Of a stretch of 64,000 bases of DNA, positions 9,710 to 37,641 are shown piece by piece. The notes beneath the pieces were generated by a model, which worked only from the letters and a program-made list of their open reading frames with translations, was not told the origin of the DNA and did not search any database. This DNA comes from a virus. Position 1 is the stretch's first letter, and each line of letters starts with the position of its first letter. The translations under genes and the position numbers were made by a program. The DNA is taken from the IMG/VR virus record IMGVR_UViG_3300045988_183746. One strand, written 5' to 3'.

Positions 9710-9785
9710 ATCATCGGATATGGGGATGGCTCAGCCGGTTGTTCCCTATCCAAATTCATAAACCATAAATTGTTAGCTTGTAGAT

Positions 9786-11446: not shown

Positions 11447-11469
11447 GTAGAATATTAAACAATAATACA

Positions 11470-11946: not shown

Positions 11947-11956
11947 AGAAACCGTT

Positions 11957-12136: not shown

Positions 12137-12146
12137 ACAAACAATC

Positions 12147-12819: not shown

Positions 12820-12821
12820 AG

Positions 12822-14029: not shown

Positions 14030-14105
14030 AGGAATGTAGAAACACTGAACAATAACTAATATCAGACACTCGGTATTATTCATTGGCTTTCTATTTTATG
14101 TGTGT

Positions 14106-14130
14106 CGGGAACGTACCAAACGTTCCCTAT
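14106..14130 (+). repeat. Palindromic element CGGGAACG-N7-CGTTCCCTAT (family 1), copy 1 of 4
   Basis: Other copies at 47516, 49016 and 54599; all lie downstream of + strand gene ends. Confidence 0.6.
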
Positions 14131-14239
14131 TAGGTATAGCCTGCTTAAATGAAGAAGCCTGAACCCTATTCCTTGCCTATTTATATCTATCTGATTATGT
14201 GTAATGTAGCTACAATTTAGTATCTTTACATATCAATAA

Positions 14240-14500
14240 ATGAGTATGAGTTACTACGAAATCAAACCAGAGACGCTAAGGTCAAACCTTGAGTTTATCC
14301 GGCAGGAAATAGGCAGGTTCCAACAGGCTCATGATGAACTTAACAACAAACCTGACGAAAGCCGTTCGGATGATGCTGACACCCTGCTTAGAGGGTATTC
14401 GAGAGTGTTGAATGAATTAAAAGCGCTTATCCGACATGATTATGATGTGGAAAATAATAAAGTCAAACAATATGAACAAGAAAGTTTTCAAAGGAGTTGA
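14240..14500 (+). CDS. Hypothetical protein
   Basis: 86-aa ORF with a promoter-like TATCTTTA upstream. Confidence 0.5.
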   Translation: MSMSYYEIKPETLRSNLEFIRQEIGRFQQAHDELNNKPDESRSDDADTLLRGYSRVLNELKALIRHDYDVENNKVKQYEQESFQRS

Positions 14501-14528
14501 TCTGAAAGAGAATAATCAAATTTAGCCT

Positions 14529-15614: not shown

Positions 15615-15997
15615 AGTATTCCCATAATAGCTGGCAAAATTCCGGTGGTCAGGCATCATATAGATCTCCTGATTACCGGAGTTATATTATTCATGATATG
15701 GTTCCAATGTGGACGAGGGTGTGTCAAAACAGAAATGACAACTTCTAAAAGTTACAGATTGTAACGTATAACACTTAAAAGGGTCGTATCAAGCTCTGTA
15801 TGGAGTAATGATACGACCCTTTTGGGGATCTTTTAGGATGCTCAAATTTCAAATTATAAGTTCATCTTTTTAATAATTGAGTTTTGACACACCCTCTTGG
15901 TGTGCGATTAGTTGCTTTTGGCTTAAATGGAAATGCAGGATTCGAGATCTTCTTCCCGATATGCACGTGATATTTTTAACATGAATGTTTATTTAAT

Positions 15998-16005
15998 TAT
16001 CTTTG
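15998..16005 (+). promoter_or_regulatory. Bacteroidota -7 promoter element TATCTTTG
   Basis: About 30 nt upstream of the ATG at 16036. Confidence 0.5.
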
Positions 16006-16035
16006 TGTCAGATAAATAACCAACACTATAAAAAA

Positions 16036-17034
16036 ATGAACTACGAGGAAATATCCAAATTCAATGATGCCAACAAAATTGACTGTTGGCCGGGGAATAT
16101 CAAAAAGGTGAAGGCTGTATTCGATAGCCAGCCTTTGGAATTTGTAAAAGAATACTATCAGTTCTGGAAACAAGAATACGAAGTACGAAAGAAGAAAGGT
16201 GGATACGGCTGCTCCAGCCTGCACCGGTCCGTAGCCGTGATGGAAAAATACATCAGGGAGCGTGGCTTGGGAATTGATGTGTCTTACCAGAAGTTGATAG
16301 CACAGTTGGAAGATATATTGAGCAAGTTCAAAGATACGTATATTGGCAAAGTCAAAGGTTTTGCCGAAAAACAGTATGAATGGGCTTTAAAATTGAACTC
16401 ATGGAACGAACTGGACTGGATTGCGGACTCATTTACCCAGACGACACGCATACGATGTGGATATCTTCAATGTGCAGTAGTTCCTTATAAGGCGGCTAAC
16501 GGACAGACCATTTGGGTGAATTTTTGTTCTGCCTTAGGTAGATATGAGGTACGGAACCTGAAAGAAGTAGATCCGACAGCATCGTATATTTACTACAATG
16601 TCAGCGGAAAAGGAAAGACCAATATCATAGTAAGATCGCCTGAACTTGCCGAAGCCAGAATGTGTGACAGTGAGAAACTTGAGACCCCGGCACGGCCAAT
16701 TCCTAGTAAAAGACAAAAGCTATTTAAGAATATTGAGGGTACCACCAAATTTGCCATAAACGGAAAAGAAATATGGGTGGAGCAAGCCCTAAAGGATGCC
16801 GAAGACAAGTTCAAGGCTGACATTCGGGTGTTGGCAAACAAGATCCGCGAAAGAAGTATCAACGAAGAGAATCTTTCTTTGCTATATGCTAGTGATGATC
16901 CGAAACATATTCAAATCAGTATCTCGGATGGTAATATTACCCTGTACGCAAGGAGCATCTTTGCAGCAGCAAATTCCATATTGTTATCACCGCATTTTCG
17001 GTTCATAGTGACCGAAACCTCCAAAACAAAATAA
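16036..17034 (+). CDS. Hypothetical protein (possible cognate partner of the Dcm methyltransferase, unproven)
   Basis: ORF track 16003..17034 begins with a TTG that lies inside the promoter motif; the first ATG (MNYEEISKF) is at 16036. Confidence 0.6.
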   Translation: MNYEEISKFNDANKIDCWPGNIKKVKAVFDSQPLEFVKEYYQFWKQEYEVRKKKGGYGCSSLHRSVAVMEKYIRERGLGIDVSYQKLIAQLEDILSKFKDTYIGKVKGFAEKQYEWALKLNSWNELDWIADSFTQTTRIRCGYLQCAVVPYKAANGQTIWVNFCSALGRYEVRNLKEVDPTASYIYYNVSGKGKTNIIVRSPELAEARMCDSEKLETPARPIPSKRQKLFKNIEGTTKFAINGKEIWVEQALKDAEDKFKADIRVLANKIRERSINEENLSLLYASDDPKHIQISISDGNITLYARSIFAAANSILLSPHFRFIVTETSKTK

Positions 17035-17252
17035 CCCATTCCGACCGTCGGTTGCTTGTGAAAGTAGCCGGCGGTGTTTTTCGGATGTATGCTCAGGGCG
17101 ATGCCCCCCACTACCTAACAAACCAAATTCAACTAATCCCGCTTATTTAGGAAAGTACGAGCCTGCTGTTTACATACCATTAAACACCTGTATATCTATA
17201 TATTACACTCATTATAACTATATTTGTAGTAGAAATTAAAACCCCCAGTAAT

Positions 17253-17465
17253 ATGGCATGGTTAGCAGTAAATAAGAATGGAACAGAAATGGTTTTCCCC
17301 GAAAAGCCTGTATATGACGGCTGGGATTGGGAACATGTAGAGTTTATGGAGTTCGAGTGTGAGCAATTCTATGTCCCTACTGGGATTGAACTTCCCAAGG
17401 GCTCAATCCAAAAACTTGCCGGACGAATTATAACATTCAGTGACGGACCAATAGAAATCAAATGA
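17253..17465 (+). CDS. Hypothetical small protein
   Basis: 70-aa ORF. Confidence 0.45.
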   Translation: MAWLAVNKNGTEMVFPEKPVYDGWDWEHVEFMEFECEQFYVPTGIELPKGSIQKLAGRIITFSDGPIEIK

Positions 17466-17487
17466 TTCAAATAACCAAAACAGTAAT

Positions 17488-17973
17488 ATGGCAATAAATT
17501 TGAACAATTATGTAAAACAGGAAATAAAAACCTCCTATGCAATAAAGGTAGGCGATATTTTTTCCGACATGGGCGAGTCATTCGTCTTTCGGTGCGATAC
17601 AATAAAAGATGGTTTCCTGTATTGCACATTATTAGAGGGTGACGCGGACGGACTGAAGCCCGAAAAAGATGGCAAGTATATGTTATGTATTTGCGATGTA
17701 ATATGGCAAGTCCTGACTCCTGCCAAATATAAAGCGTATGTCCTTTTTGGGGATGATATTTGCATCGCATACAATAACGGATCATTGGAAGAATTATTGA
17801 ATGATCCCGATGGAAAGTGCTTTGACATTACAGTCCGTGAGTTTGAAACAGAAGCAGAACGCGATGCGTACCTGTTAGGAATCAATGATCATGAGGACTG
17901 GGTTGGTCATGCGGTGCTGACAGAGAAGTTTGACTCCGAAGAGATTAAACTTCTTGAGAGCAAAGGGTACTGA
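17488..17973 (+). CDS. Hypothetical protein
   Basis: 161-aa ORF. Confidence 0.6.
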   Translation: MAINLNNYVKQEIKTSYAIKVGDIFSDMGESFVFRCDTIKDGFLYCTLLEGDADGLKPEKDGKYMLCICDVIWQVLTPAKYKAYVLFGDDICIAYNNGSLEELLNDPDGKCFDITVREFETEAERDAYLLGINDHEDWVGHAVLTEKFDSEEIKLLESKGY

Positions 17974-18736
17974 CTAGTGAAGTCCGGGCAGTTATCCCTG
18001 CCCGGCAGCGTGTCCCTTTCCGGAATCTGAACACAGATTCCTATCTTACGATTTCGATAAAATATATTCAATAATAAATATTATTCAGAGTTATCGTATG
18101 TAACAAATTAATATTCATATAGTTAATAGCTTCAAGTATAACTTTTCAAGTTATATCCCCCTATATCTGATTTTCGACATATAACTGGACATTTTAATAA
18201 TTACCACATATAAGTTAACAGGGGAAATTGTGTTAATGTATAAATATTGTTATTTTTTGTTCCATGTGAATATACAAACTAACCGAAGTCGCTATATTTG
18301 CATAATAAGACCTTATAAGTAATTAGTATCTTAAGAACTTTGACCATGAATAAAATAAAAAAACACATTCCTAATAAGAAATGTTTGAGTAACAATCGTT
18401 TCGGAAATATAAAAATAAAGATTCTAAATATGCCCCAATATACCGATAAGGAGTTAACTCAATCCTATATAAAAAACATGAAAAAAATAGAAGCCATTTT
18501 GAAATCATAATACAATAGCTTGTTCCAAAAAAGTATAGCCTACTATATAAGGAATATATTTTCTGTTTATCACCTTTATTCCTATCAGAAACAGGATTAT
18601 GGATTTTCGGTGTACTTAATGCTATATTCTTAATATATGCGACTTTATATTTTATGACTGAGAATAATGATAAAGAATGAGTTTGTTGTAACGAATAATA
18701 TATTTTTTAGCAATTAGTATCATAAAAACTTACACT

Positions 18737-18925
18737 ATGGACATCATTTCTATTTTTTCGTCAGTTGCAGGATTAGAAGAACTCATTGTCTTTTTAGTAT
18801 TTATTGTGCTTCCCCTTGTTATTTTATGTTCAAGTCGTCCCACCTGTAGCTTTGAAGAAAGTGCATGGAAAGAGATCACTGAGGATGATGATAAGAATGA
18901 ACACCCAAATGATGATAAAAAATAG
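18737..18925 (+). CDS. Hypothetical small membrane peptide (hydrophobic N-terminus, acidic C-terminus)
   Basis: 62 aa, lying in a very AT-rich island. Confidence 0.3.
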   Translation: MDIISIFSSVAGLEELIVFLVFIVLPLVILCSSRPTCSFEESAWKEITEDDDKNEHPNDDKK

Positions 18926-18940
18926 TAAGCTTAATATTAG

Positions 18941-19213
18941 TTATTTCTTCCAATTATTACACGATTTAACAGCTTTAATTATAAGAATACCAAAACCTGT
19001 AAGCAAAAATAGAAGGATTATTAAGTAATCATTACTACAGCCTTTTTCTTCTAAAAGAAAGAAATACTCAGAATACATAATGATGGAAGAAATATAGGCC
19101 AACACAAGATATTCCGGCATCTTTGATTTCAAATGTATTTTTTTATTTCCCATACTAAAGAAAACTAAAAAGAATGGGACTGTACTTAGTGAATATAATA
19201 TTGAATTTCGCAA
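18941..19213 (-). CDS. Hypothetical small membrane protein (about 3 TM helices)
   Basis: 90-aa ORF in the AT-rich island; one of the few minus-strand ORFs. Confidence 0.3.
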   Translation of the reverse strand: MRNSILYSLSTVPFFLVFFSMGNKKIHLKSKMPEYLVLAYISSIIMYSEYFFLLEEKGCSNDYLIILLFLLTGFGILIIKAVKSCNNWKK

Positions 19214-19925
19214 GGAAACAATAATATTATGGATGAATATATATATTATCAGTATTGTAATTATCTATATTAGCGAAAATAAAAATTGTATATATTATTA
19301 TACATAGCAAATGAAGTTTTGGGATTTCATTTCTGCTTAATACACTGTTAAAGAAAACAAATAAGCGAATGATATTGTCCATAGTGTAAGTTCTATATAG
19401 ACTTTGCCTAGCGTTTTAACGAGTCATAAGCCAATATGCCATCAAACGGCCATCAAATATTATGCGTTGTATATTAACGGTTTACGATTCGTCAAACAAT
19501 ATGTTTTCTACCTAATATATCCTCCTTATTAATTCTGTATGATGGGCTAAGATCGTTTTATTTGGTAAAAAATAAAATCAGGTGATACTTATATTCTATC
19601 GGCAAGATGTTTTCTATGAATTTTTCCAACAGGCCGTCCCTGTCAGTCATAAGGCCCCTGAATACTATAATCCCTTCCACCTTCCATATCACTTTGCAAA
19701 ACAGCAGAACAAGGGAATAAGGTTGGAATGAAGGAAATAGGTTAAGACAACATACTGATTGCTTCCGTTTTCATGCAGCGTCCCGCATATCCTTTCACAA
19801 TAGCAGGCTGAATCTTATATTCTCCTTTCATCAAAAAACGAGCAGGTACGCAAACTTTCCGTGGCAATTATTTGTATATATAATAAATCACAGGTATTTT
19901 TGCCACAGGATTAAAGAAGACACGC

Positions 19926-20279
19926 ATGAAGACAATGAATCAAATTATTGGCGATAATCTGAAAAGAATCAGAGAATTGTCCGGCTTCACGCAGGAGCAG
20001 ACAGCAAAGTCTGTCGGCATCGAGCGTTCGGCATACAGCAATTATGAGGGAGGGACAAGGGAAGTCCCTTATGATGTCTTGGAACGGATTTCAAATATAT
20101 TCGGCTGTGAGCCTTTCATCCTATTTGAGGATAATATTCAAGCGGACAATGAGATTCTGGCCGCTGCCTTTAGAATCTCCGATTTGGAGGATGATGACTT
20201 AAAGGAAATTGCGAATTTCAAGGATATTGTGAAATCATACCTGAAAATGGAACGGATAGCCCAAAATGAAGCCGAATAA
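19926..20279 (+). CDS. XRE-family helix-turn-helix transcriptional regulator
   Basis: IGDNLKRIRELSGFTQEQTAKSVGIERSAYSNYEGG is a classic Cro/C1-type HTH. Confidence 0.85.
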   Translation: MKTMNQIIGDNLKRIRELSGFTQEQTAKSVGIERSAYSNYEGGTREVPYDVLERISNIFGCEPFILFEDNIQADNEILAAAFRISDLEDDDLKEIANFKDIVKSYLKMERIAQNEAE

Positions 20280-21000
20280 GTTTGTTATAGAAAAACAGGT
20301 GGCAGCCTTTCGTATGGACAACGGGCTAGGAGCGTCCGAACCTGTCACACTGAAAAGCCTGCTTCTGAAACTGAATGTGCTTACAGTGTTCAGACCCCTC
20401 TCCGACAGCTTTTCCGGAATGTGCCTGAAGGACAATTCCGGACATCGGTTCATGCTTGTCAATTCCAACCAGCCCATGGGAAGGCAGCACTTTACCATAG
20501 CACACGAATTATATCATTTGTTTATCGAGGAAAAGCCCACACCCCATAAATGCAATCCCGGCAACAGTAAAAATGTCGTGGAACAAAGTGCCGACATGTT
20601 CGCTTCTTCATTTCTGATGCCAGAAGCCGGCATTTGTCAGTTGACACCGGAAGACGAGTTAAGGGGCAAAAACGTTTCTTTAGGAACGATATTGAGACTT
20701 GAGCACTATTTCTCCGTTTCCCGTTCGGCTTTGTTGTACAGGCTGCTGAACCTTGGCATTATAACGGAATCCGCCCGTTCCAAATTGGCGGAAACAAGTG
20801 TGAAATACTCTGCAAGATGTTTTGGGTACGATACAGCTCTGTATGAAGCCGCCAACGAGGGTCTGGTGATAGGTGATTTCGGAGAAAAAGCCCGTAATTT
20901 GTTTGACCGGGGCAAAATCTCAGAGGGTCATTACATGGAATTACTTCATAAAATCAATGTCGATGGAATGCAGGAAAACGAAAATAGTACTGGATGCTGA
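20266..21000 (+). CDS. ImmA/IrrE-family zinc metallopeptidase (DUF955)
   Basis: FTIAHELYHLF HExxH motif; overlaps the XRE gene by 14 nt. Confidence 0.85.
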   Translation: MKPNKFVIEKQVAAFRMDNGLGASEPVTLKSLLLKLNVLTVFRPLSDSFSGMCLKDNSGHRFMLVNSNQPMGRQHFTIAHELYHLFIEEKPTPHKCNPGNSKNVVEQSADMFASSFLMPEAGICQLTPEDELRGKNVSLGTILRLEHYFSVSRSALLYRLLNLGIITESARSKLAETSVKYSARCFGYDTALYEAANEGLVIGDFGEKARNLFDRGKISEGHYMELLHKINVDGMQENENSTGC

Positions 21001-23332: not shown

Positions 23333-23828
23333 CCGGGCACCTTTCATTCCCTTCTGGAAAACAGTATGCCGGGCAACCGTTGTTTCAAGCGGTTGTCCGG
23401 CAGCTTTTATTCTGGAACAAGGCCGCTTCCTTCAGACAAAAGACGGGATATCCTCCATCACTTCCGGGAACGCACCCACGTTCCCTTTTCCCTTGTCTGT
23501 ATGTTTATACCGCATATATATCCATCTATGCAAACTTGTGATTTCCGAATTCATTACATTTCCATTCAAGCCAAATGTTAAAAGCGGAAGGTCATGCCAA
23601 GCTCTATCATTGTCAACAAATTTTCAAATTTGATTTTTTCGGACTGAATTGTTAGTTATACCCAATTGATGGTTTGGTACTAAAAAGTATATTTTTCCCG
23701 CTTGAATGGAAAAGTTTTAACCATCCGTTATCATACTGATATTATGATAGTTACCGTATATTCACATATTATATAGCTACCTTTGTAGTATAAGATAATA
23801 GAATACTAACCGCCTAAAATTAAGGAAT

Positions 23829-24722
23829 ATGAATGATTTGCTTAGTCTGTTTGACGAAATAGAAACCAAGCCCGTAAACATGATTCCAGAAACTGACCGG
23901 ATGATTGTCGATAATTACTGGAACCTGTTTATGGAAAAATTCAACGGATTGCGGGCTATGTGGGCTGAATTTGTGGAGAGAGACAAATCCAATACAAACG
24001 ACAAGTTCAAAATCAACTCTTTGAACTATATATCAAGTCCTTTCTATTCTCATGTATGGGAAGAGAATTTGGATCGTTTCGATTATACGTTCAAATATGA
24101 CATAGTAAATTGCGAAAAGTTGATTCAAAAACTATTACGAAGTATCGAATCAAAGGTTTGCGATTATTTCTCCAAAACTTATGGCTGTAATATAGAATCT
24201 GATCACTGCCTTTCAGAATCTTTATTTAAAGAAGAACGATATAATGGTGAGTTACCTTCATTAGATTTGATTCTGGAGCATATTATCAGTCAGAATGACG
24301 GTATGTCATTTGAAGATAAGGGCGATCATGACACAAAATTGAATATTGGCAATCACCTTAAACATAAAAACATCAAATTGACATCAAAAACAGTAACAAT
24401 CGAATATGCTTTCCATACAAGGTATTACAGTTTTGAACCGCATTGGGAGGATGTGGAAAAAATACTGGATGCCGTGGTTTACTGTTTCTTCCAAAGTCAC
24501 GATTTATTTCATATCCTCTCAAATGCGGATGAATCACTTTTAAGGCGTATGGAAGCCGGAAGTGCGTTATCCATTTCCAGTGAAGCGTCCAAAATGGAAC
24601 AGATTAAATTATTCAAGAACCAAAAAATGTCCATCAAATTTCGAAAAGCCGAAGAAGCCCAGCTCTTTTACAATTTTGCTACCGAGATTAAAGAGATGGC
24701 AAACAAAAAATATCAACGATAA
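23829..24722 (+). CDS. Hypothetical protein
   Basis: 297-aa ORF immediately upstream of the MTase-helicase gene (13-nt gap). Confidence 0.65.
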   Translation: MNDLLSLFDEIETKPVNMIPETDRMIVDNYWNLFMEKFNGLRAMWAEFVERDKSNTNDKFKINSLNYISSPFYSHVWEENLDRFDYTFKYDIVNCEKLIQKLLRSIESKVCDYFSKTYGCNIESDHCLSESLFKEERYNGELPSLDLILEHIISQNDGMSFEDKGDHDTKLNIGNHLKHKNIKLTSKTVTIEYAFHTRYYSFEPHWEDVEKILDAVVYCFFQSHDLFHILSNADESLLRRMEAGSALSISSEASKMEQIKLFKNQKMSIKFRKAEEAQLFYNFATEIKEMANKKYQR

Positions 24723-24734
24723 TCATTCCTTAGC

Positions 24735-27700
24735 ATGTACAAAGATTTACAACAGATAGTTCCGACCCAAAAACGTGCAGAGATAAACGATAAGATTCTC
24801 TATTGTATTGACACACATAACAAGGCTGTCACTTCCGAGGTAGTATATAACTGCTACACGGGAGCCGGAGGGCTGCACAATCTGTCATTTAATGATTTCA
24901 ACAACTTCCACGATTATACGGAGGCTAAAAAAGAGTTTGAAATGGGGCAGTTCTTTACCCCTCATGCGGTTTGTCAGCTTATGGTTGAAATGGCGGCTCC
25001 CTCCCAGTCCGATCGGGTGGCCGATTTCTGCTGTGGCATGGGCAATTTCTTCAACTGGCTGCCGGATGGGACGTACACCTACGGTTCCGAACTTGACCCA
25101 AAGGCGGTAAAGGTGGCACGCTTCTTGTATCCGGACGCACATATCGAATGCCGGGATATTCTCTATGCCGCCCCGGAAGGCAAGTTTGACTTTGTTTTTG
25201 GCAATCCCCCATTTAATCTGAAATGGCAAGTGAACAACCTGCCTGTTTTGTCACAACTCTATTATTGCCAGAAAGCTGCCGAATATCTCAATCCGGGTGG
25301 ACTGTTGCTGCTTGTTGTTCCGGCTTCATTCCTCGCTGACGGGTTTTGGAACAAGTCTATGATATCCGAGATAAACGACAGGTTCAACTTTATCGGGCAG
25401 TGTAAGCTGGAATCCGATACGTTCGGCGAATACCAGGTGACCATTGAGACTAAGATAATGGCTTTTCAGCGAAAATCCGACCATCTGGAGAATGTGGCAT
25501 ACTCTTCTGCATTTGTTTCCCTTATGGATCTTCGTACCCGTGTGGCACAAGCCCGTGAGACCAAGCATGAGTTACGCCTGAAACTTGCTCGTGAAGCTAA
25601 GGAGAATTCAGAGCTTCCTGAATTTGAATACAAGCTGGCCAAGTATATGTATGAGATACGCATCCAGCCAAGCATCAAGGACAAGTACGGTCAATGTCTG
25701 GCTTTTGTCGAGAAGTTCCGTACACAGAAACCGCCAGAGAATGCGACCGAGAAAGAATACAAACATTGGTTGCAGCACGTGAGAATTTCCGAGAAGCAAG
25801 TACTTAACCGTTTGCGCAAGATTGTAAGAGGACAAAACGACATCAAGACTGACCGCATTGCACTTGTAAGACAGTCTTCCGGTTTTGCCATCAAAACATA
25901 CAGTTCCAGGATGGGCAAGGTTCTGAAGGAACTGAATGTTTCCCCGAAACTCTTCCTGAATATTCACGACTTGTTGCTGTGGGGTGATACCGTAAAGTCC
26001 TACTTTTCTCCTATGGCACAGACTGTCATAGAAGGGGTGGATGCCTGCGAGAAAGTTCTTTCCCGTAAACGCAAGGAAATGGAACGCCAACAACAGGCAT
26101 TCTGCGACATGCTGCCATCCGAAAACATGAAAGTGTATGTCGATAAGCTGACATTCAAGAAAGCGGACGGTACTCAGTATGCACTTACTCCCCTTCAAAA
26201 GAGCGATGCCATAAAGCTGTTCTCCAAAAGATACAGCCTAGTAAACTGGCAACAGGGGTGCGGAAAAACAGTCGTGTCTTTCCTCTATGGCAAAATGCTG
26301 TTGGACAATCAGAAGGTACGCAACGTCATCGTGGTGGCTCCGGCGGTGGCTACCAACCTTACATGGTCGGAGTTCCTGACCGTTCAGGGTGTGGCTTTCC
26401 GTAACATCAACCGTAAGGACGAAATCAACACCGCACAGCCAGGCGAGTTCCTGATCCTATCGACATCCATGCTTGGAAAAAGAAAGCGTGAGCTGAGACA
26501 GTTCCTCAGGCTGACCGCCCGGAAGCACTGCCTGATTTTTGATGAATCAGACGAAATCTCCAATGCGGCCAGCAAGCGGACACGGCATATGCTAAATCTG
26601 TTCCGACACCTGCCGTACAAGATGCTGTGTACCGGAACAACAACACGTAACGATATATCAGAGATCTATTCCCAACTGTCCTTACTGTACAATAACTCCT
26701 ACAATTTCATATCCATGAGCAGGTATCGGTACGAGCAGGACGAGGACGGGGATTTTGTTCCGGTTGACAATGAATATCTGTACCGACCCCTTCCCGTCAA
26801 ACAGGGGAACCGGATTTTCCGTTCGCTGTTCTCACCGGGCAAGAAATCGGTTTTTGGCATCCGCAAGAACTCACAGGACATCTACAACAGCGATGACTTG
26901 AAGAAGATTCTGGATTATACTATCATTACCAGACGGTTTAAGGAGGTGGCCGGCGACAAGTACGAGGTAATCAATGACCAGATTCTCCCCGGAGTAGGAG
27001 AAAAGGCGGTATATGACAAAATCCTGAATGATTTCTACGAGATTCTGCCACGATATTTTCAGTCAACAGGTGACAGCCGGAAAGATGCCGCCCTCAGACT
27101 GGTGCGCATCATAGAGCTGTTGCGTCGGGCTTGTTCCACAGCTCACCTGATGCCGGGGTATTTCGGATCGGAGTTTCCGGCAAAGGCCGGCAAGATTATG
27201 GGACTGGTGCGTGAAAGCAAAGGTCTGGTTGCAGTAGGATGCATCTCTTTGGAATCTCTGTCTTTCTATACGGATCTGTTCAAACGGTTCATTGACCGTC
27301 CGCTGTTTGTCATTGACGGCAGTGTGCCCTTTAACCGCCGCAAGAAAATCATTGCGGAGTTCCAGCAGTCGGGCAACGGTGTTTTGTTGAGCACCCAACA
27401 AAGTTTGAGTTCATCAGTAAATATTCCGAGCTGCAACGAAGTAATCATTGAAGCCTTACAGTGGAATATTCCACGGATGGAGCAATACTACATGCGTTTT
27501 ATCCGGTTCGACAGCACGGATTACAAGCACGTACATTTTGTGACTTATGCGGACACGATTGAACAGAATATACTTGCTCTGGTCATGTGCAAGGAGAAGC
27601 TGAACGAATTTATCAAATCTGGTTCTATACATGAGGACGAAGAGATTTTTTCCGAGTTCGGTATATCAGCCGATCTGTTCGACAACCTCATGCAAAAGCA

Positions 27701-27755
27701 ATATGACGAAAAAGGCCAGCTGTATCTTAGTTGGGGTGAGCAGAAGGTAGTTTGA
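24735..27755 (+). CDS. N6-adenine DNA methyltransferase fused to SNF2-family helicase (DarB/polyvalent-protein-like)
   Basis: N-terminal motif I VADFCCGMGNFF and motif IV FGNPPFN. C-terminal half has Walker A GCGKT, DExD-like LIFDESDE, SNF2 motif III LCTGTTTRND and helicase-C motifs (LLSTQQS...QYYMRFIRFDS). Confidence 0.9.
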   Translation: MYKDLQQIVPTQKRAEINDKILYCIDTHNKAVTSEVVYNCYTGAGGLHNLSFNDFNNFHDYTEAKKEFEMGQFFTPHAVCQLMVEMAAPSQSDRVADFCCGMGNFFNWLPDGTYTYGSELDPKAVKVARFLYPDAHIECRDILYAAPEGKFDFVFGNPPFNLKWQVNNLPVLSQLYYCQKAAEYLNPGGLLLLVVPASFLADGFWNKSMISEINDRFNFIGQCKLESDTFGEYQVTIETKIMAFQRKSDHLENVAYSSAFVSLMDLRTRVAQARETKHELRLKLAREAKENSELPEFEYKLAKYMYEIRIQPSIKDKYGQCLAFVEKFRTQKPPENATEKEYKHWLQHVRISEKQVLNRLRKIVRGQNDIKTDRIALVRQSSGFAIKTYSSRMGKVLKELNVSPKLFLNIHDLLLWGDTVKSYFSPMAQTVIEGVDACEKVLSRKRKEMERQQQAFCDMLPSENMKVYVDKLTFKKADGTQYALTPLQKSDAIKLFSKRYSLVNWQQGCGKTVVSFLYGKMLLDNQKVRNVIVVAPAVATNLTWSEFLTVQGVAFRNINRKDEINTAQPGEFLILSTSMLGKRKRELRQFLRLTARKHCLIFDESDEISNAASKRTRHMLNLFRHLPYKMLCTGTTTRNDISEIYSQLSLLYNNSYNFISMSRYRYEQDEDGDFVPVDNEYLYRPLPVKQGNRIFRSLFSPGKKSVFGIRKNSQDIYNSDDLKKILDYTIITRRFKEVAGDKYEVINDQILPGVGEKAVYDKILNDFYEILPRYFQSTGDSRKDAALRLVRIIELLRRACSTAHLMPGYFGSEFPAKAGKIMGLVRESKGLVAVGCISLESLSFYTDLFKRFIDRPLFVIDGSVPFNRRKKIIAEFQQSGNGVLLSTQQSLSSSVNIPSCNEVIIEALQWNIPRMEQYYMRFIRFDSTDYKHVHFVTYADTIEQNILALVMCKEKLNEFIKSGSIHEDEEIFSEFGISADLFDNLMQKQYDEKGQLYLSWGEQKVV

Positions 27756-27763
27756 TAAGATTT

Positions 27764-27789
27764 GGGTAGGGTACATCCCCTACCCTTTT
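27764..27789 (+). terminator. Rho-independent terminator (GGGTAGGG/CCCTACCC stem plus TTTT)
   Basis: 8-bp perfect stem with a 6-nt loop and a T-run, directly after the 27755 stop. Confidence 0.7.
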
Positions 27790-27813
27790 CTGATCTCCCG
27801 CAAAATATGAGCC

Positions 27814-27834
27814 AAAGCCCGACTACGGGCTTTT
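27814..27834 (+). terminator. Second tandem terminator (AAAGCCCG/CGGGCTTT stem plus T-run)
   Basis: 8-bp stem with a 4-nt loop and TTTT. Confidence 0.6.
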
Positions 27835-27952
27835 ATGAGCACTCTCGCTTAAATGAAGATGTCGGTTTGAGCTGTTATCCGGAATAAGACATCACATCTT
27901 TAGGAAATTGATATATAATTAATTACCTTTGGCATACAGATAGATAACAAAT

Positions 27953-29833
27953 ATGAACATGGATATAACCAAAACAAACAACCTTCAGGAGATACCGGCA
28001 ACCGAAGAGCTGAACAAACTGTGCCGGACTGCCGACACCATACGCCCGGGTGATTATTTCCTGCATGGAAGCGACCTTCTTAGGGTAGCCAGTCTAAACA
28101 GCGACGACCAAAAGACCGTTGTCCGATATGAGCTTGTATGGGACATCGAGAATGAGGGGGTGTACTCTTCTTATGGTGCGGAGGAAGTAAATGCCTTTCT
28201 TAAAAACAAGTCTTACGTGCCCGACCCTCACAAGCTGTATAGTCAGGCGGTAGGAATCATGGACGGTACTTACACACCTGAAATTCCAGAAGAAGATGCC
28301 GGACCGGATGATTGTACGGATGACAGCACCATGCTGATTGGCCGGAACTCTCCCCAGTCTCTCATAGCACTGGCCCAGAAGAAGCAGCTTCTTGCCAGAC
28401 AGCTATCCGATTTAAAGCAGATGGCCGACTACCACCGGTCAGTGCTTGAAAACCGAATGCGCAATAAATTGTCCAAACTGGCAGAAACACGCAACCGTAT
28501 CATGTCCCAGCTTACCAACATACAGAAAGCATTGAGCATGTTGCAATTGTACATGGGTGATGAACATTGCGTCGAACAACTTTCCTCCGGAGCCAATGCC
28601 CCCGAAAACGAACCGTTTGCCATCCATCAGCAATTATTGTTTATGGATGAAGAGTGCGGCATCATCAGTGATGGCGGCATCGACATCGAACGCATAAACG
28701 AGTTTGAAGAGTGGTTGATGAAGGAAGACCATTTGGATGCTATTCTGCCGGATACAAAGGGTATTGTAGCACTCAAGCCAAGGCGGTTCCGCAAGGACTA
28801 CGGAAGCTCCTACTACACTGCGGTAATGGAACATTGGAACCGGCATACATTCTTCCTGATTCGGAATGGTGAGAATGTATATCTTATCGACTCCAATCAT
28901 ATTGAAATAACCGACCGCCTCTTTCCCTTACGTTCCGAAATGCAGGAACTCTACGACAAGGCGGCACAGACAAAAATGGAGTATGAGAAAGAAGATTCTG
29001 CAAAACGCATCCAAAGTGCAAACGAGCGGTACCACCGGATTATCTTTTTCATACAAGGGCTTACAGATAATACCGAAGTCCTACATCCTATACCACAGGG
29101 AGTAAACCTGTTCAACCCTGATTCGTATGCCGGATGGGTAAGACTGGTGTATGATGACGAAGCAGCGTTGACAGATGGCAGGATGTCGTATCGTGATTGG
29201 GTCAAAGAAATCAATGCTTCTGTCAAACGAGGCAGCCGTATTGCGTACTGCCCGGACAACCGATGGAATTATAGTGGCAAAGGCGAGTTATGGCGGTATG
29301 CCAACAAGCACTTTATCCGGGACTACTATAATGATTATGCTGTACCGGATTTGCCAACATCAGGAATCTATACGCTGGATACGGTTTCCAAATACGGAGT
29401 GGAACATCTGGCATTCAAATACAAACCAGGCGATACCATTTTCTCTTCTGATTATTACGGCAAACGGAGAAACAGACTGGCCTTCATTGTCGGAGAAAGC
29501 GATATCTATCTGAATTATGACCGTATCTCGTTGGATGACATCGAATACTACCTACACTCCCGGATTGAGAGGAAGCACTACCTCGATATTCTCCCTGTCT
29601 TGCTGGAGGTGCGCAAAAACCTGAGAGCAGAGCAACAGCAGGAAAATGCCTTCCGTCTGATGCTGTTGGGAGAACTGCTGCAACAGGGTATATCCGAAGA
29701 AATGGCGAACAGGCACATTACCGAGGCGATTGACTGGTGGAAATACAAGAACATCTGGAAGCGGCCAATCTGTAATGATGACGCCAAGGCTCTGCGTATG
29801 ATCAAGAGCCGCGTATTGAAAATTATTAAATAG
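27953..29833 (+). CDS. Hypothetical protein (large, no recognised motifs)
   Basis: 626-aa uninterrupted ORF on the same strand. Confidence 0.7.
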   Translation: MNMDITKTNNLQEIPATEELNKLCRTADTIRPGDYFLHGSDLLRVASLNSDDQKTVVRYELVWDIENEGVYSSYGAEEVNAFLKNKSYVPDPHKLYSQAVGIMDGTYTPEIPEEDAGPDDCTDDSTMLIGRNSPQSLIALAQKKQLLARQLSDLKQMADYHRSVLENRMRNKLSKLAETRNRIMSQLTNIQKALSMLQLYMGDEHCVEQLSSGANAPENEPFAIHQQLLFMDEECGIISDGGIDIERINEFEEWLMKEDHLDAILPDTKGIVALKPRRFRKDYGSSYYTAVMEHWNRHTFFLIRNGENVYLIDSNHIEITDRLFPLRSEMQELYDKAAQTKMEYEKEDSAKRIQSANERYHRIIFFIQGLTDNTEVLHPIPQGVNLFNPDSYAGWVRLVYDDEAALTDGRMSYRDWVKEINASVKRGSRIAYCPDNRWNYSGKGELWRYANKHFIRDYYNDYAVPDLPTSGIYTLDTVSKYGVEHLAFKYKPGDTIFSSDYYGKRRNRLAFIVGESDIYLNYDRISLDDIEYYLHSRIERKHYLDILPVLLEVRKNLRAEQQQENAFRLMLLGELLQQGISEEMANRHITEAIDWWKYKNIWKRPICNDDAKALRMIKSRVLKIIK

Positions 29834-29883: not shown

Positions 29884-30225
29884 ATGGAAACAAACGGATT
29901 AATTTACAATGTAGAAAAGATTTATATTGAAAACGGCACTACCTTCAAAATGAAGGTGAACATCAGACTGAATGACGAATGCAAGAATAATATATGCGAA
30001 TGGACTATAACCGCTGATATTTACGAAAAACAAGGCGACGGACGCTACGTTTATTGCTGTGACGGCTGTTGCCACGAAGAAATATTAAAACATTTCCCGC
30101 AATTTAAAAGATTTGTTGATTTGCATTTTTCTAACCATTACGGGCAACCTCCTTACCCTGTTAAAGGCGGTGGCTTTTATTATATAAACAAAAAGACGAA
30201 AAAGCAATCAACTATCTACGCATAA
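29884..30225 (+). CDS. Hypothetical Cys-rich small protein
   Basis: 113 aa; contains YVYCCDGCCHEE. Confidence 0.5.
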   Translation: METNGLIYNVEKIYIENGTTFKMKVNIRLNDECKNNICEWTITADIYEKQGDGRYVYCCDGCCHEEILKHFPQFKRFVDLHFSNHYGQPPYPVKGGGFYYINKKTKKQSTIYA

Positions 30226-30245
30226 CCGAAAACGAGTATAATATA

Positions 30246-30761
30246 TTGTGCAATGCAGAGGACGAACAATACTTTACATACCTATTGCATGAATTAGGTA
30301 TCGTGGAACGTTGGAAAAGAGAATCAGACGAAGCAATTAAAGTCCTAGAAGAGCTAACCGGGCAAACATGGGTAAACCCGTATAAGCCCGAAGAAGAACG
30401 CCTTGTTTTGAAGTTCACGGACGAGGAACGCACATTAATCAAAAACAGACTTAAGGAAGGCTATTATACACCCGAAGCCATACAGGCACGCAAGGAACGG
30501 GAAAAGCGTGAGAAGTACGAGAAAAAGCGCAACGAAATAATTGCAGATTGCGAAAAAGCTATGCAGAAAGCGGAAAATAAAAAACTTGTTATGTTAGCCG
30601 TACTTGATGCTGGGATATCACTGGTGTATTATGATTCTAGCAATGAATTTGTGTTTAATTGGAGAAATTCCGAAACAAAAATAACGCAAGAAGAGTTAGA
30701 CAATTTCGTAAAAACGGTTGATAAGACAAAATTGCCTAAAGACATAACCTTTAGATTATAA
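30246..30761 (+). CDS. Hypothetical protein (start uncertain; ORF-track start is TTG)
   Basis: 171-aa ORF with a Lys/Glu-rich central region. Confidence 0.45.
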   Translation: MCNAEDEQYFTYLLHELGIVERWKRESDEAIKVLEELTGQTWVNPYKPEEERLVLKFTDEERTLIKNRLKEGYYTPEAIQARKEREKREKYEKKRNEIIADCEKAMQKAENKKLVMLAVLDAGISLVYYDSSNEFVFNWRNSETKITQEELDNFVKTVDKTKLPKDITFRL

Positions 30762-31569: not shown

Positions 31570-33415
31570 GACGGGGGTGTGTCGTAATGCACGATGCACC
31601 CCCTTCTTTTTTCGTTAGCTATAAAAATCAGTTACTCTTCTTTAAGCTGCGATATTTTGACTATTACTTCGGTTTATGTGTTCCCAGCATCTAAATAGAG
31701 CAGCTGTAAGCTCATGAAACAGTTTAATCAGCCAGTTTATACCTTCTTCTTTCATTTTAGCACACATTTTCTTTATATTGAAGGCCATGGCAAAGAAGCA
31801 AAAGTCCATGAAAACCTTATCCTTTCCAAAATGACGGAAACGTTGGTAGTTCATATTGTATTTTATTTGTCCGAACACAGCTTCCGGTTCTATACATCTT
31901 TGTTTTCTATGTTTCAGCCCTTCCTCGGAACAGAGCAACTCTTTGGCTTTCTGCTTGTATCTTCTGAGCCTGTGATTCAGTTCTATCGTTCTGTTTCCTT
32001 TTGCTTTAAAACATCGGCATCTTAGCGGACAGCCTTCACATCTGATAGCTCTGTACCTGGCATTTTCGCTTACATATCCAGATGCAGTTTTCTGATGTCT
32101 GGTCCCTATCCTCTGCATCCTTTGTCCCATGGGGCAGATACAATAGTCATGTTCTTCATTGTAGTAGAAGTTTTCTGCCTTGAACGGATCCGGTTTGAAT
32201 CTCGGCCGCTGCTCCATGTGGAAATAGTTATATTTGACGTAAGCTTCCATGCCGTTCTCTGACATGAAGCGGTAATTCTCCTCGGAACCATAGCCGGAAT
32301 CGGCAACCACCGTATGAGCCATCCGGTCATACCTGTTTGAAAAAGATTGCAGGAAAGGGATCATGGTCAGTGTATCCGTAGGGTTCGGGAAGAGTGCAAA
32401 ATCGGTGATGAACTGGTTCTCGGTGCCGATCTGAAGGTTGTAACCGGGCTTCGTCTGCCCGTTACGCATGGCATCCTCCTTCATTCTCATGAAAGTTGCG
32501 TCCTTGTCCGTCTTGGAATAGGAATTCCTTTCTTGCAGCGTGTCCAGATGACTGTCGTATTCCTGGAGTTTGTCCCTATGTTCTTCCAGCTCCTTCAGCT
32601 GTTTGCGTCTCTTTTTCAGCTCAGTCTTTTCCTCCTTGGTGGAAGGCTCGGGAACCTGTTCCAGCACATGACGTAATTCTCCCGCCATTTCGGTCAGCAT
32701 GGCCGGAGTGAACTCAACCTCCTCATTACTTTCCGAAGACTTTTCTTGGGCGATGACATCGTCTATCTGCCCTAGCAGGACATGTATCTTCTTCATCAGG
32801 CGTTCACGGTTCCGCTCAACCGTTTTTCGCCAAACGAAAGTATACTTGTTGGCTTTGGATTCAATCTTTGTCCCGTCAATGTATTCCACGTTCAGGCTGA
32901 TGAAGCCTTTGGAAGAGAGAAGGAGTACGGTTTGGGTAAACACCTCGTTGATTTCCTTCTTCACCCGATTGCGGAAACGGTTGATGGTAATGAAATCCGG
33001 TTTCTCATATCCGGCAAGCCAGATATAATGAATGTCACGATGAAGGAGTTTCTCTATTTTCCGGCAGGAGTAGATGTTGTTCATGTAGGCATACAGAATG
33101 ACCTTGAGCATCATTTTGGGATGGTAAGGGCTACGACCGCATTCTTTATATAACTTCCTGAAACTTTCAAGATTCAAGCTTTCAACCAGAGCGTCAACCA
33201 TGCGCACCGGATCGTTTTCTGCAATATCCTCATCAATTCTTTGAGGAAATAGCACTGTTTGATTGGGGATGTAAGGACGATAATGTATCTTTGCCATAGT
33301 AAAATTTGTATGCTTAAAGATACAAAATCTTTAGGTAATAACAAAGCCCCAGCTTGTGAAAGTCGGGGCTTTGTGCATAAACAACAAGAAGGTGTGCTTT
33401 TTGACACACCTTCTT
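31570..33415 (-). mobile_element. IS1182-family insertion sequence (ends approximate)
   Basis: A single 551-aa transposase. Both flanks carry GGTGTGTC..GCAC-containing palindromic ends (31573-31600 and the palindrome AAGAAGGTGTG...CACACCTTCTT at 33386-33415). Confidence 0.65.
31642..33297 (-). CDS. IS1182-family DDE transposase
   Basis: MAKIHYRPYIPNQTVLFPQRIDEDIAENDPVRMV... N-terminus and overall architecture typical of IS1182/IS5-superfamily transposases. Confidence 0.88.
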   Translation of the reverse strand: MAKIHYRPYIPNQTVLFPQRIDEDIAENDPVRMVDALVESLNLESFRKLYKECGRSPYHPKMMLKVILYAYMNNIYSCRKIEKLLHRDIHYIWLAGYEKPDFITINRFRNRVKKEINEVFTQTVLLLSSKGFISLNVEYIDGTKIESKANKYTFVWRKTVERNRERLMKKIHVLLGQIDDVIAQEKSSESNEEVEFTPAMLTEMAGELRHVLEQVPEPSTKEEKTELKKRRKQLKELEEHRDKLQEYDSHLDTLQERNSYSKTDKDATFMRMKEDAMRNGQTKPGYNLQIGTENQFITDFALFPNPTDTLTMIPFLQSFSNRYDRMAHTVVADSGYGSEENYRFMSENGMEAYVKYNYFHMEQRPRFKPDPFKAENFYYNEEHDYCICPMGQRMQRIGTRHQKTASGYVSENARYRAIRCEGCPLRCRCFKAKGNRTIELNHRLRRYKQKAKELLCSEEGLKHRKQRCIEPEAVFGQIKYNMNYQRFRHFGKDKVFMDFCFFAMAFNIKKMCAKMKEEGINWLIKLFHELTAALFRCWEHINRSNSQNIAA

Positions 33416-35035: not shown

Positions 35036-35290
35036 TTGACTATGACAAAAAAAGAATACAAGATCATTGACAGTATCCAGCGTGCATGTACTGAAGACTG
35101 GGGATTAGAAACTGATGTTCTGTCAACCAAGGAACACTTCGGAACAGAACAGGATATGGAACTGCCCGGACAATGGGTATGGGTGTGCAGATTAAAAGAT
35201 GACACACTCGCTTTCATCGACGAATCGGAAGCAGATGCTACCTTGACAGCAGACAATTCCGTATATTTATTGTTCAAACTTGGAGAATGA
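35036..35290 (+). CDS. Hypothetical small acidic protein
   Basis: 84-aa ORF; overlaps the next gene by 4 nt (ATGA). Confidence 0.5.
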   Translation: MTMTKKEYKIIDSIQRACTEDWGLETDVLSTKEHFGTEQDMELPGQWVWVCRLKDDTLAFIDESEADATLTADNSVYLLFKLGE

Positions 35291-36060
35291 TGGATACGGA
35301 CAAGATTCTCCAGAAGTTGCGGAAGCTCATGAATCTGAAAGAGTCCGCAGCTGCTGTCGGAAACGTCGGCGAGGCAAATGCGGCGGCAGCGGGAATAACC
35401 CGCCTGCTGCTCGAATACAACCTGTCCGAGAAAGACATTCCTGAACAGGACAAGATTGACAACCCTATAGCGGTTGAAGATATTCCGTACCGGACTTCAG
35501 TCGAAAACGGTGTTTGGTATAGGGAATTAGTACAAACGGTGTGTTATTTCAATTTTTGCAAACTGCTGATTTGCCTGAAAATGAACTCTAAAACAGGGAA
35601 ACGCGAAAGGGACAAATTTAAGATTGTCGGTCGGAAGAACAATGTTGAGACAGTCCTGTACCTCATTTCCTTTCTATCGAACAAATTTGTTGTTTTAGGA
35701 AGAAAAGAATACCCTGCTTATCACCGCAAATGTATCCTTGAATTGGGAAAGTCCCCTTTGAGCCAGAAGGCGTTTCTCCGCTCGTTTCTTATCGGATGCA
35801 TAGTCGGAATAAGGGAAAAATTCGAGCGGGATCAGAAGGAGTTTGGAGAAAGTATCACTGCACTTATCGTTTCTAACAACGACATGATTGACGAATTCTT
35901 GAAGAAAGAGATGGGTGATATAAAAAATGCCCGAAAGTCGAAGAAACCTGACATTGACATGATATCTGGCAAGCAGGGCTTTATAGCAGGCTACAATGTC
36001 GAGATCAATAAAGGAATATACAGTAAGGATGGAGAGCATAAGACGCTTACTGACAAATAA
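35287..36060 (+). CDS. Hypothetical protein with DUF2786-like N-terminus
   Basis: KILQKLRKLMNLKESAAAVGNVGEANAAAAGITRLLLEYNL resembles the DUF2786 N-terminal helix pair found in phage/plasmid proteins. Confidence 0.55.
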   Translation: MMDTDKILQKLRKLMNLKESAAAVGNVGEANAAAAGITRLLLEYNLSEKDIPEQDKIDNPIAVEDIPYRTSVENGVWYRELVQTVCYFNFCKLLICLKMNSKTGKRERDKFKIVGRKNNVETVLYLISFLSNKFVVLGRKEYPAYHRKCILELGKSPLSQKAFLRSFLIGCIVGIREKFERDQKEFGESITALIVSNNDMIDEFLKKEMGDIKNARKSKKPDIDMISGKQGFIAGYNVEINKGIYSKDGEHKTLTDK

Positions 36061-37032: not shown

Positions 37033-37641
37033 ATGGACATAAAGACAATAGAACGTGAAGCTGTATCTTCAGCAGTGATTGATTTCGGAATCTTTAATTC
37101 CGAGAAGAACGATTATTATATCAAAGGATTCCTAACCGGTGCCCTCTGGCGCATCAACTCAGTTTGGCATGAACCGTTCGAACATCCGGCAGACGGCCAG
37201 TATTTGACTATCCTAAGACAGGGAGATCAGATACTTTCGGAAATCGCTCCTTGGAAAGACGGTAAATATCATGGCAAGGTACACTCACAGATCTCCAGCA
37301 AAGGATACGAGGTGATTAAATATGCAGACGTATGCGATCTGATTCCGGAAATGAAGGGTATCGATTTGAATATGTCTGACAGATCCGCAGAGTCTGATTC
37401 GAATGGCAAAGAGAAAATGGTAGAGAAAAAGATTCATAGAATCCTGATATGTCAGATAAATGAAGAGGTGAATCTGAACGAAACGCTGCTTAACCAAGGA
37501 TTCGACAGTCTGGATGTCGTGGAAATCTGTATGAAAATAGAGAATGAATTTGATACCTCTTTCGACTTCAACTGGGTCAACGACGAAACGACAGGTTCGG
37601 AGATTATCAATTATGTGAATCAAACATTAGCCAACAAATAA
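37033..37641 (+). CDS. Hypothetical protein with C-terminal acyl-carrier-protein-like (phosphopantetheine-binding) domain
   Basis: NETLLNQGFDSLDVVEICMKIENEFDTSFDF matches the ACP helix II motif (G-x-DSLD-x-VEL) around the conserved Ser. Confidence 0.55.
   Translation: MDIKTIEREAVSSAVIDFGIFNSEKNDYYIKGFLTGALWRINSVWHEPFEHPADGQYLTILRQGDQILSEIAPWKDGKYHGKVHSQISSKGYEVIKYADVCDLIPEMKGIDLNMSDRSAESDSNGKEKMVEKKIHRILICQINEEVNLNETLLNQGFDSLDVVEICMKIENEFDTSFDFNWVNDETTGSEIINYVNQTLANK

Follow-up and report, generated by a model that had tools for sequence, protein, structure and literature searches.

The IMG/VR virus record IMGVR_UViG_3300045988_183746 supplied the 64,000-nt stretch of DNA that was analysed here, called the window below. 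This report concerns its region 23829–29833, where three open reading frames (ORFs) follow one another on the + strand: one of 297 amino acids (aa; 23829–24722), one of 1006 aa (24735–27755) in which an N6-adenine methyltransferase (MTase) is fused to a SNF2-type ATPase, and one of 626 aa (27953–29833). All three were confirmed at the positions given in a preliminary description of the window, which proposed that they may form one functional unit. We find instead that the first two make up an operon conserved across two phyla and phages, and that the third is a neighbour of a different kind.

A −7 promoter-like box of the Bacteroidota type, TACCTTTG (TAnnTTTG), lies at 23778–23785 on the + strand, 44 nt 5′ of the 297-aa ORF, which is the first gene of the operon. 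A second, identical −7-like box lies at 27924–27931 on the same strand, 22 nt 5′ of the 626-aa ORF. Both were found by pattern search, and between them the sole further TAnnTTTG box falls inside the 297-aa ORF. The TAnnTTTG consensus is a Bacteroides promoter element. It is over-represented in the whole window (86 observed against 58 ± 8 expected; none of 100 shuffles reaches 86), and many of its + strand copies stand 20–60 nt 5′ of + strand ORF starts, a pattern that would fit a Bacteroidota element carrying many small genes with promoters of their own.

The TAA of the 297-aa ORF and the ATG of the fusion are separated by TCATTCCTTAGC, a gap of 12 nt; the genes are thus as closely spaced as had been described, although the gap had been counted as 13 nt. 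The fusion gene is followed by two hairpins that were previously taken for tandem terminators. Both hairpins are real. Hairpin 1 (27764–27785, + strand), with an 8-bp stem containing six G-C pairs followed by TTTTCT, was called as terminator-like by a terminator scan. Hairpin 2 (27814–27833, + strand; AAAGCCCG-ACUA-CGGGCUUU) was seen on folding and was not called by the scan; it is a weaker terminator candidate because its U-run lies partly inside the stem. The 95-nt stretch containing the hairpins has a minimum free energy of −32.5 kcal/mol (z = −4.1 against shuffles). From this layout, with a box, the 297-aa ORF, 12 nt, the 1006-aa ORF and two hairpins, then a new box and the 626-aa ORF, we read the first two genes as one operon and the third as a separate unit.

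Profile searches with Pfam find three domains in the 1006-aa protein, all encoded on the + strand: N6_Mtase (residues 66–273, 24930–25553; E 8.8e-12), the SNF2 N-lobe (SNF2-rel_dom, residues 508–738, 26256–26948; E 1.1e-6) and the Helicase_C lobe (residues 829–925, 27219–27509; E 5.1e-8), with an arginine motif RFIRFDS at its end that reaches residue 927. Toward the amino end, in an LPD36-like segment, the motif YTGAGGLH (residues 41–48, 24855–24878, + strand) fits the GxGU signature of LPD36; residues 1–79 gave no match in Pfam, which holds no LPD36 model. Every motif quoted in the preliminary description is present. Those of the MTase are FFTP (73–76), motif I DFCCGMGNFF (97–106) and motif IV NPPF (157–160); since motif I comes ahead of motif IV, the MTase is of the gamma class. 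Those of the ATPase are the Walker A sequence GCGKT (508–512), DESD (603–606) and LCTGTTTRND (631–640), the last including motif III TGTTTRN (633–639).

Conservation was assessed in an end-to-end alignment of eight sequences from Bacteroidota, Bacillota and phages, the homologues being 37–78% identical. Invariant MTase residues are D97, G101, F105, F106, N107 and N157-P158-P159-F160, and invariant ATPase residues are G508, G510, K511, D603, E604, D606, T635, T637, R638, N639, R921 and R924. The N-terminal segment is held just as firmly at T42, G43, G45, G46, L47 and H48 and at Q72-F73-F74-T75. This invariance of the catalytic motifs in both halves, from Bacteroidota and Bacillota to phages, means that both activities are under selection. 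The nearest solved structures by sequence are M.TaqI for the MTase (E 2.4e-7) and, for the ATPase, DDM1 (E 1.1e-7), SNF2, Fft3 and INO80.

Among phage protein families, phrog_24008 matches the fusion end to end (E = 0, 1013 bits, residues 3–1005 against positions 4–1005 of a 1006-position profile), and the weaker PHROG matches include phrog_10089, ‘DarB-like antirestriction’. With DarB of phage P1 itself, columns 13–240 of the family profile align to DarB residues 45–266 (hhalign probability 97.7%, E 1.8e-12), an alignment that takes in the DarB sequence YTGEGGIGG opposite the YTGxGG motif of the fusion. The architecture had been likened to that of DarB and of polyvalent proteins, a term used in PMC5512222 for several unrelated effector domains joined in one polypeptide and delivered with DNA. 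The dyad of methylase and helicase and the homology to DarB 45–266 bear out the first half of that likeness. The second half does not apply: Pfam revealed no other effector domains in the 1006-aa protein, which is a solo methylase-helicase dyad and not a polyvalent protein.

Neither a nuclease nor any other effector was found in the operon or its neighbours with Pfam, PADLOC and NCBIfam. Methylase_S, a nuclease and a ResIII-nuclease architecture are absent from both operon proteins, ResIII matching the ATPase lobe only. Membership of type I, ISP or type III restriction-modification systems, which would call for an HsdS subunit or a fused target recognition domain (TRD) together with a nuclease domain (HsdR, Mrr or Res), was considered and rejected on these grounds.

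Homologues of the fusion were sought by tblastn in PLSDB (72,556 plasmids) and in phage records, and by an alignment query in one genome per species. A scan of genome contigs with the single protein gave no match; the alignment query gave 80 loci. By tblastn, full-length matches came from 18 plasmids and 10 phage records, and 19 of the 72,556 PLSDB plasmids carry the fusion over at least 63% of its length. Full-length homologues of 37–47% identity occur in pBS72, pBsph and other plasmids of Bacillus, Lysinibacillus and Vescimonas, in a C. botulinum plasmid, in the C. botulinum phage D-1873, in the Tenacibaculum phages pT24, PTm1 and PTm5 (∼225–235 kb) and in human faecal phage contigs. The 80 loci span Bacteroidota (Bacteroides, Phocaeicola, Prevotella, Parabacteroides, Alistipes, Dysgonomonas, Muribaculaceae, Niastella, Puia and others) and Bacillota (Paenibacillus, Bacillus, Oscillospiraceae, Lachnospiraceae and others). 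Two Bacteroides loci that were inspected for integrative and conjugative element (ICE) content, L013 and L014, look like ICEs. Carriage by mobile elements, as had been supposed, is thus borne out in plasmids, plasmid-like contigs and phages and, among chromosomal loci, in the two ICE-like ones. Judged by its sequence, the fusion is a member of a conserved ∼1000-aa family with relatives in Bacteroidota ICEs and plasmids, Bacillota plasmids and phages.

In L013 and L014, which show the common Bacteroides version, the pair belongs to a conserved array (9157–20939) that reads DUF4121, partner, fusion, ORFs of 240, 104, 95 and 313 aa, DUF4313 and LPD29. Immediately before the L014 array come chromosomal ATP-synthase genes, a PIF1-type helicase and an acyltransferase, and the array therefore probably lies at an ICE edge. 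Some loci have split fusion genes: L016 (9395–12405) in parts of 830 and 185 aa, L082 in two pieces and L089 interrupted by ∼2 kb. Such splits may reflect pseudogenes, insertions or errors of assembly.

The 297-aa ORF and the 626-aa ORF had been described as without recognisable domains, and neither product matches a Pfam, NCBIfam or PADLOC family. For the 297-aa protein the informative comparison is with the ORFs adjoining the fusion in pBS72, pBsph and a Vescimonas plasmid, to which it is 20–27% identical. The family so defined has an N-terminal motif LL..h..h......RIPE.D, a central motif IFEQLGG.SF.EKA and a C-terminal motif FKN.K....F.....A..F. With only the 297-aa protein as query, a word-indexed search returned 3 matches, and a profile of distant members was used in its place. 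The family hidden Markov model (HMM) matches the ORF beside the fusion in plasmids, phages and ICEs. In the first six loci it found a same-strand ORF directly 5′ of the fusion in five; in the Tenacibaculum phage pT24 the partner ORF is ∼2.3 kb downstream of the fusion.

The same HMM was then applied to the 80 loci, four of which were left out as unassessable for want of upstream sequence. The partner is upstream and on the same strand in 72 of the 76 others. It was scored as abutting the fusion in 65 of these; among the seven scored as farther away, two are artefacts of split fusion genes and truly adjacent, one is at ∼450 nt and four are at ∼1.9–2.9 kb. Neighbours on the strand of the fusion and no more than 6 kb away were also clustered, over 88 loci; the partner was present in 79 and was the sole family common to several lineages. 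The next most frequent neighbour family was seen at 27 of the 88, all in one Bacteroidales synteny group. A tblastn search of the 72,556 PLSDB plasmids with the pBS72 partner returned 19 records, identical as a set to the 19 that bear the fusion. The 297-aa ORF is a genuine, near-obligate partner of the fusion across two phyla and phages.

The two proteins have also diverged together: over 2145 pairs, their pairwise identities correlate with r = 0.90. Divergence of the partner runs at about double the rate of the fusion: fusions 80–90% identical go with partners of ∼66% identity, and fusions 40–50% identical with partners of ∼23%. No pair joins a near-identical enzyme to an unrelated partner, and therefore there is no sign of shuffling in the style of specificity subunits. 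An HsdS-like sequence or fold match for the partner was likewise not found, the fold comparison being made with a poor model. In a library of 1.8 billion proteins the partner family forms 645 clusters (representatives) at 50% identity, and its members are almost all standalone proteins of ∼300 aa, a few of them with N-terminal extensions. The 297-aa protein matches phrog_27491 (function unknown; 722 positions) at positions 443–710.

The structures of both neighbours of the fusion were predicted with AlphaFold2, as the preliminary description had suggested, with mixed returns. The model of the 297-aa protein is poor (predicted local distance difference test, pLDDT, 58) and has no informative fold match; that of the 626-aa protein is confident and is without known fold. 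A role of the partner as a DNA mimic was entertained and is not supported, the family being only mildly acidic (median isoelectric point 5.7).

Two variations on the partner gene were seen in Bacillota. In Paenibacillus the partner lies in stop-to-stop ORFs of 660–730 aa whose start codon is not fixed (L067 7768–9948, L074 7968–9941, L078 7747–9948); the extension is N-terminal, ∼400 aa long and without a Pfam domain, and the total length is akin to that of phrog_27491. In pBsph of Lysinibacillus sphaericus (L002) two tandem partner paralogues (5967–6836 and 7032–7943) stand ahead of the fusion gene.

The 626-aa protein has a very different distribution. Its family, of 600–1100 aa and without a Pfam domain, gave 143 matches in the word-indexed search. 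The gene adjoins the pair only in the closest relatives of the window, L015–L017. In L007, a related plasmid contig of 104 kb, seven genes (a toxin-antitoxin pair and five small ORFs) separate the 626-aa homologue from the pair; a 173-kb metagenome contig has a homologue with no methylase-helicase within 10 kb; and at the 80 distant fusion loci not one 626-aa homologue lies within 10 kb of the fusion. The family occurs by tblastn on 1133 PLSDB plasmids, 1025 of them typed conjugative, and also in four phages, including large ones. The plasmid hosts are led by Klebsiella (515), Enterobacter (202), Escherichia (122) and Salmonella (87). The 626-aa protein aligns over core residues ∼180–590 with a 1126-aa protein encoded on a MOBH plasmid of K. 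pneumoniae (NZ_CP138784.1, L099 6305–9685), a secure homology (hhalign 99.8%, E 3e-28). Elsewhere the neighbours of 626-aa homologues are often genes of DNA metabolism, among them those for an N6_N4 methylase, SSB, DprA, DnaB-like and other helicases, VRR-NUC, Gp37/Gp68 and an 8-oxoG glycosylase, and in the seven contexts inspected no methylase-SNF2 fusion beside the homologue was annotated or flagged by Pfam. Because it has its own box, with hairpins between, is missing near the fusion at every one of the 80 distant loci and is widespread where the fusion is not, we place the 626-aa ORF outside the unit. It is an independent backbone gene of a widespread mobile-element family, not a component of the module.

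What follows the 626-aa gene varies. In the window, 29884–30761 holds ORFs of 113 and 171 aa that have no Pfam match and match phrog_17696; in L015–L017 the same spot (15912–16603 in L015), directly after the 626-aa gene, holds a Gp49/HTH (helix-turn-helix) toxin-antitoxin pair, and in L007 such a pair is directly 3′ of the methylase-helicase gene. The position is apparently a slot for variable cargo. Farther on, between ORFs of 171 and 363 aa, the window has an insertion sequence (IS) transposase (DDE_Tnp_1_6, DUF772; 31642–33297, − strand). L015–L017 have no called gene of that size between their 161-aa and 363-aa genes, which are ∼350 bp apart. By these gene calls, the IS transposase looks like a recent insertion in the window copy.

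The window as a whole is a long series of same-strand genes, mostly without annotation, which we read as a plasmid-like or ICE-like Bacteroidales element. Its cargo includes an LPD1/LPD5 ‘polyvalent-associated’ protein (2529–4313) and an SPFH/flotillin protein (5511–6938). Other recognisable products before the operon are a tyrosine recombinase (13079–14029), a C5 cytosine methylase (14529–15614) and an HTH protein whose gene overlaps that of an M78 (ImmA/IrrE-like) peptidase (19926–21000). After it come a DUF2786/DUF7168 protein (35287–36060), a 202-aa protein with a phosphopantetheine-attachment (PP-binding) domain (37033–37641), UvrD (40158–42590), PcfJ (51440–53008), SSB (59179–59664) and, on the strand opposite to the main gene run, a Rep3-type initiator (59761–61002). 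A group II intron reverse transcriptase/maturase (RVT_1 and GIIM) is encoded at 302–1564 on the − strand.

When the 6-kb region and 49 kb of flanks were compared with PLSDB by megablast, nothing matched except the group II intron segment, where ∼430 bp in two pieces within 189–2142 are 94% identical to a plasmid of Segatella copri DSM 18205; the element is therefore absent from PLSDB. NCBI has identical copies of the 297-aa and 1006-aa proteins, GKH73478.1 and GKH73477.1 of Parabacteroides merdae, the latter annotated ‘N-6 DNA methylase’, and the exact protein pair is present on at least 1000 public contigs.

We consider it probable that the two-gene operon is an establishment module of this Bacteroidales mobile element, serving anti-restriction by ATP-driven methylation of the element itself. 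What we infer is an enzymatic activity, its early timing, a shielding of the DNA against restriction and a physical association of enzyme and partner, and these would fit together as follows. Once the element has entered a new cell, the SNF2 motor would use ATP to move the enzyme along double-stranded DNA, and the M.TaqI/EcoKI-type domain would deposit N6-methyladenine on the element's own DNA soon after entry. DNA so methylated would be refractory to the resident restriction systems before they could cut it. The partner would be a co-evolving subunit that binds the enzyme and may load it, set its target preference or restrain it. The window also encodes SSB, UvrD, PcfJ, the C5 MTase, LPD1/LPD5 and DUF2786/DUF7168 on one and the same strand, a gene context that would fit an establishment region.

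A stronger form of this proposal concerns the 297-aa protein: that it is an obligatory bound subunit (a loader, a target selector or a safety catch), and that the seemingly solo dyad, widespread in phages, plasmids and ICEs, is really a two-component ATP-dependent methylation machine of which one component has been overlooked. We offer this tentatively, as a possibility somewhat on the unlikely side, because of the near-universal adjacency of the two genes, their identical occurrence in PLSDB and their co-divergence, with the partner changing about twice as fast.

Several results weigh against the establishment module or its details. No origin of transfer (oriT), relaxase or type IV secretion system was found among the window ORFs screened, and therefore a leading-region position cannot be claimed for the operon. 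The stretch between the MTase core and SNF2 (residues 274–480) may or may not be a TRD; Pfam matches nothing in residues 271–487. Four of the 76 assessable loci are without a detectable partner even at E ≤ 10, and the partner's role is a guess in view of its poor model. The likeness to DarB is incomplete: hhalign returned no alignment of the helicase half with DarB, and DarB is packaged in the virion and has its role within the phage Dar system, whereas the pair in the window has no virion context and another partner. In addition, the MTase domain is similar to MTases from defence systems (mad2 in PADLOC, E 4e-20 over 188 residues). Experiments on members of the ∼1000-aa family were not found in the literature.

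Two other readings keep the pair on the side of the element. The SNF2 translocase might itself be the anti-defence agent, displacing or stalling host proteins such as type I complexes or nucleoid silencers, with methylation secondary or regulatory. SNF2 enzymes do translocate on duplex DNA and remodel protein-DNA complexes, as the relatives DDM1, SNF2 and INO80 in PDB do; the helicase motifs are conserved as strictly as those of the MTase; and DarB, according to PMC5512222, protects in cis against type I enzymes, which translocate. But D97, G101 and NPPF of the MTase are invariant across phyla, which would be needless if methylation were dispensable, and we regard this reading as quite unlikely. 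Alternatively the pair could be housekeeping, with no anti-defence role: it could mark the element's own DNA epigenetically and so govern its replication, transcription or partition, or it could be a helicase for replication or recombination. Phage records annotate the homologues simply as ‘helicase’, the genes keep company with DNA-metabolism genes such as UvrD and SSB, and the Tenacibaculum phage copies lie amid genes of unknown function. The patchiness of the family, on 19 of 72,556 PLSDB plasmids, argues against a core replication function, however. Also against the housekeeping reading are the place of the family in Bacillus plasmids, in putative establishment operons beside ArdC and C5 MTases, and the homology to the DarB MTase. 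Housekeeping seems unlikely to us.

Outside these, the pair could be the modification and motor parts of a DISARM-, BREX-, MADS- or Hma-like defence system, of which DISARM or BREX had been named as the alternative in the preliminary description. PADLOC and NCBIfam do give weak partial matches to mad2 (4e-20), HmaA (2e-7), DrmD (3.5e-4) and BrxHII (5.6e-5). Yet by NCBIfam MAD2 scores 48.5 bits, over 38 residues, against a cut-off of 720, and DrmD 15.7 against 610; the PADLOC match of DrmD covers the C-lobe only, and those of HmaA, BrxHII and DpdE are confined to the Helicase_C lobe. The scanned window neighbours contain no nuclease, PLD (phospholipase D), DUF1998, PglZ, BrxC or DrmA/B/C and have no PADLOC match, the IS transposase being the sole one annotated by Pfam. 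No third gene is conserved across the 88 loci, where only the 297-aa partner is common, and homologues occur in Tenacibaculum phage genomes and in putative establishment operons. With partial scores below threshold and no other components in the scanned neighbours, membership of DISARM, BREX, MADS or Hma was rejected, and a defence role is very improbable.

Lastly, the 297-, 1006- and 626-aa proteins might act together, as first proposed. All three lie side by side in the window and in its closest relatives, L015–L017, and a Klebsiella MOBH plasmid has a 626-family protein right after a different DNA MTase, of the N6_N4 type. This part of the proposal fails on the intervening hairpins and promoter-like box, on the 0 of 80 distant loci and the seven-gene distance in L007, and on the contrast of 1133 plasmids with the 626 family to 19 with the full-length fusion; we give it hardly any credence. 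The part that concerns the 297-aa partner stands, at 72 of 76 loci and with r = 0.90.

The establishment module would matter beyond this element. Relatives are frequent in the genomes of Bacteroides, Phocaeicola and Prevotella, on plasmids of Bacillus and among phages, and Parabacteroides merdae is a human gut species. Should the pair prove to be an establishment methylase, it would influence the restriction barriers that these elements can cross and the methylomes of their hosts, with bearing on gene flow in the gut microbiome and on the engineering of Bacteroidales. The practical gains are a unit corrected from three genes to two and a conserved partner that biochemical studies of these enzymes should co-express.

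Among known systems, class 1 DISARM shares with the pair an adenine MTase (DrmMI) and a SNF2-type ATPase (DrmD). It differs in that MTase and ATPase are fused in the window, where DrmA/B/C and a PLD nuclease were not found. In the defence system MANTIS (Gao_RL), MtsC methylates only with the help of the ATPase MtsA and the co-regulator MtsB (bioRxiv 10.64898/2026.09.23.753747). That too is an adenine MTase dependent on an ATPase and a small accessory protein, a conceptual analogy only: the MANTIS ATPase is AAA+ and not SNF2, the system has four genes with a helicase-nuclease effector, and no homology is claimed. P1 DarB protects in cis against type I enzymes, which translocate, as stated in PMC5512222. 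It is 2255 aa long against 1006 aa for the fusion, and there is no BLAST-level similarity between them, P1 not being among the tblastn matches.

A further known system is the ‘methylase-helicase dyad’ of Iyer, Burroughs, Anand, de Souza and Aravind (2017; PMC5512222). It consists of LPD36, of about four helices with a GxGU motif, an EcoKI/TaqI-like N6-adenine MTase with TP and NPP(Y/F) motifs, and a SWI2/SNF2 ATPase, and it is proposed to methylate incoming DNA in an ATP-dependent manner. The window protein has the same domain order, a gamma-class MTase with NPPF and an upstream TP (T75 being invariant) and a C-terminal ATPase of the SNF2 clade, and its family is likewise carried by phages, plasmids and conjugative elements. 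At the N-terminus, a putative LPD36, the window sequence TG.GGLH (42–48) fits GxGU, and residues 12–65 align with DarB 45–∼90. The differences are that the window protein has no further effector domains and comes with a separately encoded partner of ∼300 aa, which is not described in the accessible part of that paper. The fusion is an ordinary member of a family already described computationally.

Another comparison is with the pLS20-family plasmids, for which Val-Calvo et al. (2021; PMC8708921) describe putative establishment operons. Two operons of Table S5 carry the fusion, and both open with an unannotated protein of 262–269 aa; in operon C of one Table S5 plasmid, the unannotated protein has 262 aa and the next, of the fusion type, 1009 aa. 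The B. atrophaeus NRS 213 locus (pBatNRS213) is our L062, and its first operon gene is the partner by HMM. These operons share with the window the fusion family, at 37–38% full-length identity, and the two-gene order. They differ in host phylum and in what precedes them, EGeRS1 regulatory sequences in the Bacillus copies as against a Bacteroidota-type promoter box in the window, and the establishment role is putative there also. More generally, orphan MTases are a prominent class among the genes enriched in plasmid leading regions (Samuel and Burstein 2024; PMC11541004). The pair is therefore already listed among putative establishment genes, although the available text of PMC8708921 does not recognise the partner as a conserved companion. 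What may be new here is the quantitative, near-obligate linkage of the ∼300-aa partner to the methylase-helicase fusion, together with the finding that the 626-aa gene is unrelated to it.

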